From the IMG/VR virus record IMGVR_UViG_2693429642_000019: 4,423 nucleotides of DNA; one strand, given 5' to 3'. The notes beneath the pieces were generated by a model. It made no database searches. It saw only the letters and a program-made list of their open reading frames with translations, and was not told the origin of the DNA. Below, in pieces: positions 2,976 to 3,256 of this stretch. The position numbers and the translations under genes are program-made. This DNA is from a virus (taxonomy: Monodnaviria > Loebvirae > Hofneiviricota > Faserviricetes > Tubulavirales). How positions within the stretch are numbered: the first letter of the stretch is position 1; the number at the start of each line of letters is the position of its first letter.

Positions 2976-3218
2976 ATGAAACTGAAAACCCTTGTTTTAT
3001 CTGGTCTGGCAACGACTGCTTCTGTCGCTGCGCTTCCGGCTTCTGCTGCGGTTAGTGTTCCGTCTTTTATTACTGCTGATACTGTTAAAGAAATTGGTGA
3101 CGCGCTCACCAGTGTGATTGGCATTGCAGGTACGGCGGCATTTGCCGTTCTTGGTGTTTCACTCGCTGCCCGTCTGGGTATCGGTATCATTAAAGGCTTC
3201 CTTTCCCGCGCAACCTGA
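2976..3218 (+). CDS. Major coat protein precursor (gVIII-like), 80 aa
   Basis: SD AGAGGA (2965-2970) lies 5 nt before ATG 2976. Signal peptide [24 protein letters not shown] with an AxA cleavage site. The predicted mature protein has the Ff coat layout: N-terminal part with acidic residues (D, E), hydrophobic core [18 protein letters not shown], and a basic C-terminus [16 protein letters not shown] strong terminator follows. Confidence 0.85.
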
Positions 3219-3233
3219 TAGTTATTTAACGAC

Positions 3234-3256
3234 AGCGCCCTCCGGGGCGCTTTTTT
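3234..3256 (+). terminator. Rho-independent terminator after the coat gene
   Basis: Perfect 7-bp GC-rich stem AGCGCCC (3234-3240) / GGGCGCT (3245-3251) with loop TCCG, followed by a T-run 3251-3256. It begins 16 bp after the coat gene stop. Confidence 0.75.

Follow-up and report, generated by a model that had tools for sequence, protein, structure and literature searches.

Genes and features around the coat-pIII junction

The window, by which the whole analysed stretch of 4,423 nt is meant, matched a segment of the chromosome of E. coli strain 100416 at 99.5% identity. The segment belongs to a prophage unit of about 8.7 kb (~8.74 kb) that adjoins hipBA in this strain and is present in at least two tandem copies. 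A near-identical record, L001, was used for full-length coordinates, L001 11279 being equal to window position 3279. The features relevant to the junction are given below in window coordinates unless L001 is named.

187-2187, same strand as the coat gene: Rep gene, replication endonuclease of the P2 gene-A (GPA) type (PF05840, phrog_91), not of the Ff gene II type
2966-2970, plus strand: Shine-Dalgarno sequence GAGGA, 5 nt before the coat ATG
2976-3218, plus strand: ORF of the major-coat-like precursor, 80 aa, with ATG at 2976 and TGA at 3216-3218
3219-3221, plus strand: second in-frame stop codon, TAG, directly after the TGA
3234-3251, plus strand: hairpin made of AGCGCCC (3234-3240), loop TCCG (3241-3244) and GGGCGCT (3245-3251)
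3251-3256, plus strand: run of six T (U-tract), its first T shared with the A-U pair of the stem
3266-3270, plus strand: Shine-Dalgarno sequence AGGAG, 8 nt before the TTG; AGGAG or GGGGG in relatives
3279-4423, plus strand, leaving the window: gene of the pIII-like adsorption protein with a TTG start; full length 451 aa in L001
3887-4216: Gly/Ser linker repeat of pIII, 78-nt period, 3.5 copies, 95% matches
3256/3257 to about 5004 of the unit (L001 11256-13004): pIII-pVI cassette
L001 about 7850-16590 and 16590 onward: prophage units, tandem copies beside hipA
L001 7505-7535: dif-like hybrid site GGTGCGCATAA-TGTGACACGCG-TTATGTTGAAA, left junction beside hipA

The main prophage genes are all encoded on the same strand in the order Rep, 141-aa protein, 46-aa product, 56-aa product, coat, pIII, pVI, Zot (pI) and secretin (pIV). 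The 46-aa and 56-aa products between the 141-aa protein and the coat are both small and hydrophobic. The gene after pIII, in the pVI position, encodes 119 aa, pI carries a Zot domain and pIV is a GspD-type secretin. The overall gene order mirrors II-V-VII-IX-VIII-III-VI-I-IV of the Ff phages. In contrast to Ff with its gII replication, the window phage has the P2-GPA-type Rep (PF05840) and is a chromosomally integrated tandem prophage. By Rep, the nearest named phages were Vibrio fs2 and VFJ with ~30% identity over 85% of the protein. The Rep type and gene order of these Saetivirus members are as in the window phage; the two are nevertheless very distant from it, the coat similarity being undetectable.

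An intact dif was not found in the 20-kb L001 locus with up to 3 mismatches allowed, where only the dif-like hybrid junction was detected, and this junction suggests XerCD-mediated integration of the prophage. Xer-mediated integration is known for CTXphi, CUS-1 and YpfPhi (PMC4266046). The window prophage is like these three in being a chromosomal tandem filamentous prophage by a dif-like site with a Zot-type pI and a divergent small regulator (PMC4266046), whereas no relation was seen in the comparison, which was performed at the DNA level.

Operator-like repeats TTGCA(T/A)(T/G)TTTGCACAATTGCAC were noticed upstream of Rep at 88-109 and 140-161, and a 20-nt palindrome overlaps them (82-115). 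A small gene is divergent from Rep across the repeats, and its relative in L011 has HTH domains. Since the repeats lie between Rep and a divergent HTH-related small gene, the segment 82-161 is a probable repressor-operator region.

The prophage was carried by some E. coli, among them strains 100416, E200086 and TD225-C4, the megablast matches being mostly human stool or diarrhoeal isolates, and no strain labelled K1 was among the megablast matches listed. A phage collection searched with the window DNA gave nothing similar, and scans of genome contigs (one genome per species) with Rep and the coat alignment gave no confirmed relative. Judged from these searches, the family seems restricted to E. 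coli and E. albertii. Nothing specific describing these E. coli prophages was found in the open-access literature. The E. coli inovirus lineage is previously undescribed, while the coat/terminator/weak-start design is an ordinary one, long known from f1/M13 and IKe.

The start of the coat gene is placed by PGAP at the equivalent ATG in L001. The coat precursor has a predicted signal peptide of approximately residues 1-24, which would be cleaved at an Ala-X-Ala site (…LPASA, followed by AV). The mature coat of ~56 aa is acidic at its N-terminus, hydrophobic in its core and basic at its C-terminus, and a single helix at residues 34-79 (pLDDT 73-87) was obtained in the AF2 model. The sole sequence match in the PDB (E<=10) was the coat of the If1 inovirus, 1IFK, with a weak E-value of 0.57 and an alignment limited to the C-terminal motif (…GIKLFKKFVSRA on the If1 side). 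No family match was found for the coat in Pfam, and hhalign of the coat against the fs2 and IKe coats resulted in nothing significant. Considering the features of the protein, the helix prediction and the synteny, 2976-3218 is very likely the major coat gene. The gVIII-like coat precursor named upstream of the hairpin in the initial annotation is in keeping with the signal peptide, mature layout, predicted helix and genome position. A tandem stop (TGA-TAG or TGA-TAA) ends the coat gene of all close relatives and is also found in M13/f1 (TGA-TAA, L018 1520-1525) and fs2 (TAA-TAA, L019 3236-3241); IKe is without it.

An antisense ORF of 102 codons (window 2954-3262, minus strand) runs across the entire coat gene as well as the terminator, and in all relatives its frame is open over 96-106 codons. 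It is probably not a gene: the coat lacks Tyr, His and Gln codons, and their absence removes the antisense stops in this frame, which is why the frame stays open.

The pIII-like protein consists of the signal peptide MIHFIIPLLFLFFSSFSFA, a Cys-containing N-domain and a Phage_Coat_A (g3p N1) domain at aa 126-171, the Pfam match (PF05357) reaching 36.2 bits against a curated cut-off of 20.8. The PHROG matches were to attachment protein and virion structural protein families, and the full-length copy ends in a hydrophobic C-terminal anchor. Judged by the domain match above the curated cut-off, the downstream gene is a pIII homologue, as had been supposed. In the linker repeat, BLAST alignments with other strains are interrupted at 3952 and 4216, indicating that the copy number of the repeat varies between strains. 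In strain E300010 (L007 1759-2185), the pIII-like gene is annotated from 2185, ~365 nt later than in the others, and the N-terminal part of pIII may be disrupted there.

The TTG start proposed for pIII in the initial annotation was borne out by the PGAP start in L001, by the spacing of the AGGAG sequence 8 nt upstream and by an indel in relatives, and it recurs in two unrelated pIII N-terminal modules. The GTG at 3270 was considered as the pIII start and rejected: a 1-nt indel between the Shine-Dalgarno sequence and the TTG in relatives breaks its frame, and it overlaps the Shine-Dalgarno sequence. TTG starts were found in the window type, in the E. albertii type and with the EC12-type N-terminus (MAYIFIFLV…), which is unrelated. 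GTG starts were found in L012/13, f1 and IKe, and ATG starts in L014/15, L037, fs2 and the RefSeq M13 record. In L037, the ATG at 3729 opens a 529-aa ORF with a signal peptide; a GTG start was rejected for this pIII, its frame stopping after 18 codons. At one and the same position, gene III starts with ATG in RefSeq M13 (NC_003287.2, L018 1579) and with GTG in f1 (NC_025823.1, L020 380). By these assignments, a weak pIII start is frequent, but not obligatory. The range 2976-3256, to which the junction had been assigned, covers the coat gene and the terminator, whereas the start of the pIII-like gene at 3279 lies outside it.

The hairpin and U-tract in the window, in relatives and in known phages

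The hairpin starts 16 nt past the TGA (3218) on the coat strand, within the 60-nt non-coding gap before the TTG at 3279. The distances read from the sequence earlier, 16 from the end of the coat ORF to the hairpin (3234-3218) and 23 from the T-run to the pIII TTG (3279-3256), were in agreement with the coordinates, and just 22 nt lie between the T-run and the TTG. The stem, which had been described as a perfect 7-bp GC stem with a T-run, is perfect over 7 bp and is followed by the T-run, but it is not all-GC, being composed of 6 G-C pairs and 1 A-U pair. The loop is a UNCG-type tetraloop closed by C-G, C(UCCG)G, of the extra-stable class. The RNAfold energy of the bare hairpin was -14.7 kcal/mol, and the hairpin was present in both the MFE and the centroid folds of the local region. 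An A-tract upstream of the hairpin is absent.

In a consensus scan, 3234-3256 was the top terminator-like site of the window and the top coding-strand site of the whole prophage unit. A lenient scan of the window resulted in 15 terminator-like sites versus 7.0 expected. A motif equal to or better than that of the window, meaning 7 bp paired without mismatch, of which 6 or more are G-C, with a 3-8-nt loop and 5 or more T in 6, occurred in 9 of 3000 shuffles that kept the dinucleotide composition of the window (0.3%), counted on either strand and anywhere, so that neither the coding strand nor a position inside the 60-nt gap enters this figure. The Rfam search of the window at E<=1 gave no family anywhere. 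No match to the sigma-70 consensus was detected between the coat gene and pIII on the plus strand (2900-3300); a weak non-consensus promoter overlapping the terminator could escape this consensus-only scan.

The conservation of the element was studied with 53 coat 3' ends (17 distinct downstream sequences) from complete E. coli genomes, IMG/VR contigs, metagenome contigs and assemblies. A G+C-rich hairpin with a U-tract was located 14-18 nt after the tandem stop in all of them (53/53). In L037, which was found separately and has a coat 47% identical, the hairpin lies 26 nt after a single TAA stop. Four unrelated stem sequences were distinguished among the relatives, one being the window type and the others as follows.

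L012/13 (coat 61% identical): ACGCCCC-UUAACC-GGGGCGU, then UUUUAUUUUUAUUUU
L014/15: CCCCGUC-UCCG-GACGGGG, then UUUAUU; the UCCG loop recurs here on an unrelated stem
L037: AAGGCGGC-GUUU-GCCGCCUU, then UUUUUU

Within the window type, position 2 of the loop is variable (UCCG, UUCG, UGCG), the loop always being UNCG closed by C-G. The stem of this type showed a single change, a C-to-U in L030 by which a G.U pair is retained. Variation was also seen in the spacer that precedes the stem (AACGAC, AAUGAC, AACAAC, GAUGAC), and the sequence after the T-run is highly variable. The U-tract is interrupted in the E. albertii variant (UUUUCAGUUUU, UUUUCAG) and reads UUUAUU in L014, and both score lower (d about 20). 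That the stem hardly varies among close relatives, whose DNA is 84-94% identical, is weak evidence alone. The four hairpin types are unalignable and are shifted out of register by MAFFT, so that column-wise covariation is not scorable; no compensatory changes were seen in aligned columns, where only one G.U change was observed besides the wholesale replacement of stems. The retention of structure and position while the sequence turns over is the signature expected of a functional terminator.

In the EC12-type variant (L009 about 1800-1819; also L002, L035 and L036), a second hairpin was predicted directly after the terminator. This hairpin, GCUUAUUC-AGG-GGGUGAGU, pairs the G-rich Shine-Dalgarno sequence of pIII and is possibly an extra translational brake.

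The coat-pIII junctions of the window and of known filamentous phages were compared and are listed by stop codons, length of the gap between the two genes, hairpin, U-run, ribosome-binding site and start codon.

f1/M13: TGA-TAA; gap 56 nt; AAAGGCUCC-UUUU-GGAGCCUUU; about U9; GGAG; GTG in f1, ATG in RefSeq M13
IKe: TAA; gap 67 nt; annotated stem loop 2031-2050; U8; RBS 2072-2076; 'gtg start'
fs2: TAA-TAA; gap 78 nt; 10-bp hairpin; weak UUUUCGAU; RBS 3303-3307; ATG
Window: TGA-TAG; gap 60 nt; AGCGCCC-UCCG-GGGCGCU; U6; AGGAG; TTG

The Ff junction shares with the window the coat gene, the tandem stop, ~16-18 nt, a G+C-rich hairpin with a 4-nt loop, the U-run, the Shine-Dalgarno sequence and gene III. 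About 20 nt with a GGAG-type Shine-Dalgarno sequence separate the T-run from gene III in Ff, and the AGGAG arrangement of the window is similar. The hairpin sequences are, however, unlike, that of Ff having 9 bp with an A-U extension and that of the window 7 bp with a higher share of G+C. The two differ also in the U-run (9 in Ff versus 6), in the loop (UUUU versus UNCG) and in the start codon (GTG in f1 versus TTG). In the GenBank record of IKe, a Lineavirus, a 'stem loop structure, pot. transcription termination' is annotated between gVIII, which ends at 2014, and gIII (2082). The IKe stem is G+C-rich like that of the window (GGGGCGC/GCGCCC), whereas the sequences are unrelated. In IKe, the 3' end of gene VIII carries annotated putative promoter elements; in contrast, the window has no consensus match there. 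The Ff arrangement with which the junction had been equated was accordingly found again, the gVIII-terminator-gIII layout of f1/M13 and IKe being reproduced in the window.

The hairpins were also scored by hairpin energy and T-tail according to a d'Aubenton-Carafa type formula, resulting in 42.9 for the window, 50.1 for M13, 53.0 for IKe, 20-55 for the relatives and about 0 for fs2, so that the window is comparable with M13 and IKe. By the textbook account of Ff, many overlapping gII-gVIII transcripts all end at the terminator after gVIII, and the expression of genes III-IV is low. Vectors make use of the terminator of fd gene VIII as a stock part for blocking read-through (PMC3056738).

Proposed role of the hairpin

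The element at 3234-3256 is probably a Rho-independent terminator that closes the abundantly transcribed Rep-to-coat half of the prophage, while the later genes would be fed by read-through. This reading is favoured because of the rarity of the motif, the positional conservation with turnover of the sequence, the identities of the flanking genes and the identical arrangement of the junction in f1/M13 and in IKe. Points against it are the U-tract of 6 U, which is shorter than in f1 and IKe, the lack of an A-tract upstream and the poorer tracts of the E. albertii variant and L014. That transcription ends here and how efficiently, that pIII mRNA stems from read-through and how much the TTG lowers the yield are what we infer from these data. 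By analogy with Ff, the terminator might also deserve the epithet 'strong' and might limit read-through, as was claimed in the initial annotation.

According to the proposed mechanism, most of the transcripts that start upstream, likely at the Rep-proximal control region (~80-165) with the operator-like repeats, would end at the U-tract. RNA polymerase would pause at the U-tract, and the G+C-rich 7-bp hairpin with its C(UNCG)G cap would form in the exit channel and release most transcripts at a point ~40 nt past the coat stop codon. A ribosome that terminates at the coat stop, 16 nt before the stem, should for this reason leave the folding of the hairpin unblocked. Once it forms the end of the coat message, the hairpin should in addition shield this message from 3' exonucleases. 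The minority of polymerases that read through would mainly supply pIII, pVI, pI (Zot) and pIV (secretin). Such a feed of the pIII-pIV genes is proposed because no sigma-70-like promoter was found and because of the 22 nt separating the T-run from the TTG. Whether read-through would be the sole source of the pIII-pVI-pI-pIV transcripts is, in our estimate, about evenly balanced. TTG is a poor initiator in E. coli, and the translation of pIII would be further damped by it despite the good AGGAG Shine-Dalgarno sequence. The terminator and the TTG together would give the large ratio of coat to tip protein needed by the filament.

The shielding of the 3' end could also be taken as the main task of the hairpin, which would then act as a stabiliser or processing barrier of the mRNA, transcription ending elsewhere and exonucleases trimming back to the stem. 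The very stable C(UNCG)G-capped stem does resemble barriers to 3' exonucleases, and the U-tracts are poor in L014 and in the E. albertii variant among the relatives. However, a U-rich tract follows the stem directly in every lineage, those with unrelated stems included, and a pure stability element needs none. The homologous position in fd/f1 is, moreover, an established terminator (PMC3056738 and textbook knowledge). Stabilisation in place of termination is therefore considered improbable, while the two roles are compatible and do not exclude each other.

It could further be argued that the hairpin is kept mainly as a recombination joint for the exchange of the pIII-pVI cassette and that its terminator shape is secondary. 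The 91-94% identity to the 2015C-4136, EC12 and Z1323 variants ends exactly at 3256 and is lost until about 5005, which is in line with such a joint. The swap of a divergent cassette should, however, in any case leave a breakpoint at the last constrained non-coding element. Lineages with other hairpins keep a hairpin and a U-tract as well, which indicates selection on structure and function and not on sequence identity, and the hairpin is very unlikely to be maintained mainly as a joint.

A role in the single-stranded phage genome, as packaging signal, minus-strand origin or Xer-related fold, is still harder to reconcile with the locus. Inoviruses normally package the coding strand, so that the hairpin can also form in ssDNA. 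In IKe and Ff, however, such signals consist of hairpins of far greater length, situated in the large intergenic region that follows gene IV (IKe annotation), and in the window prophage it is between the secretin and Rep genes that the dif-like junction and the large non-coding region are found. None of these signals resembles a stem of 7 bp with a T-run in a gene gap of 60 nt, making this role highly improbable. Finally, short GC palindromes arise by chance and the lenient scan gave more sites than expected, but a functionless chance palindrome can practically be dismissed considering the rarity of a motif of equal quality in the shuffles and its location, which is on the coding strand within the one gene gap of any size and at a position conserved across lineages with unrelated stems.

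The pIII-pVI cassette and the significance of the junction

The terminator coincides with a boundary in the homology between prophages. The identity to the 2015C-4136-type prophage was 93.9% from 188 to exactly 3256, the last T of the terminator, and with the 2015C-4136, EC12 and Z1323 variants it amounted to 91-94% from the Rep start to the same position. The homology to the 2015C-4136 type was essentially lost from 3257 to about 5004 and came back at about 5005, the start of Zot, with 84-86% through Zot and the secretin. With the E. albertii prophage, 89% identity extended to 3296 (~40 nt past the terminator) and was followed by a gap to about 5002. From the loss of homology between the terminator and the Zot gene and its resumption beyond, it follows that the pIII-pVI tip-protein cassette has been exchanged as a block with its left edge at the terminator. 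The pIII gene was observed to be mosaic itself, the N-domain, the linker and the C-domain having different relatives.

The terminator may be only the last constrained element before a hypervariable cassette. A more far-reaching and rather doubtful possibility is that the hairpin and the T-run serve as a shared joint for the recombination of host-range modules, the TTG having been re-created in unrelated cassettes under selection for a low dosage of pIII.

With the terminator as the preferred reading, the junction gives a model of the transcript architecture, an abundant Rep-to-coat unit and a pIII-pVI-pI-pIV unit fed by read-through, which is defensible and goes little beyond annotation. The model covers uncharacterised tandem filamentous prophages at the dif side, mainly from human diarrhoeal E. 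coli isolates. The Ff-style design of coat, terminator and weak start would thus recur in a lineage with a different, P2 GPA-type Rep, and the terminator would mark the edge of a swappable host-range cassette. For the engineering or induction of these prophages, it is relevant that the expression of pIII probably depends on read-through and on the TTG start.
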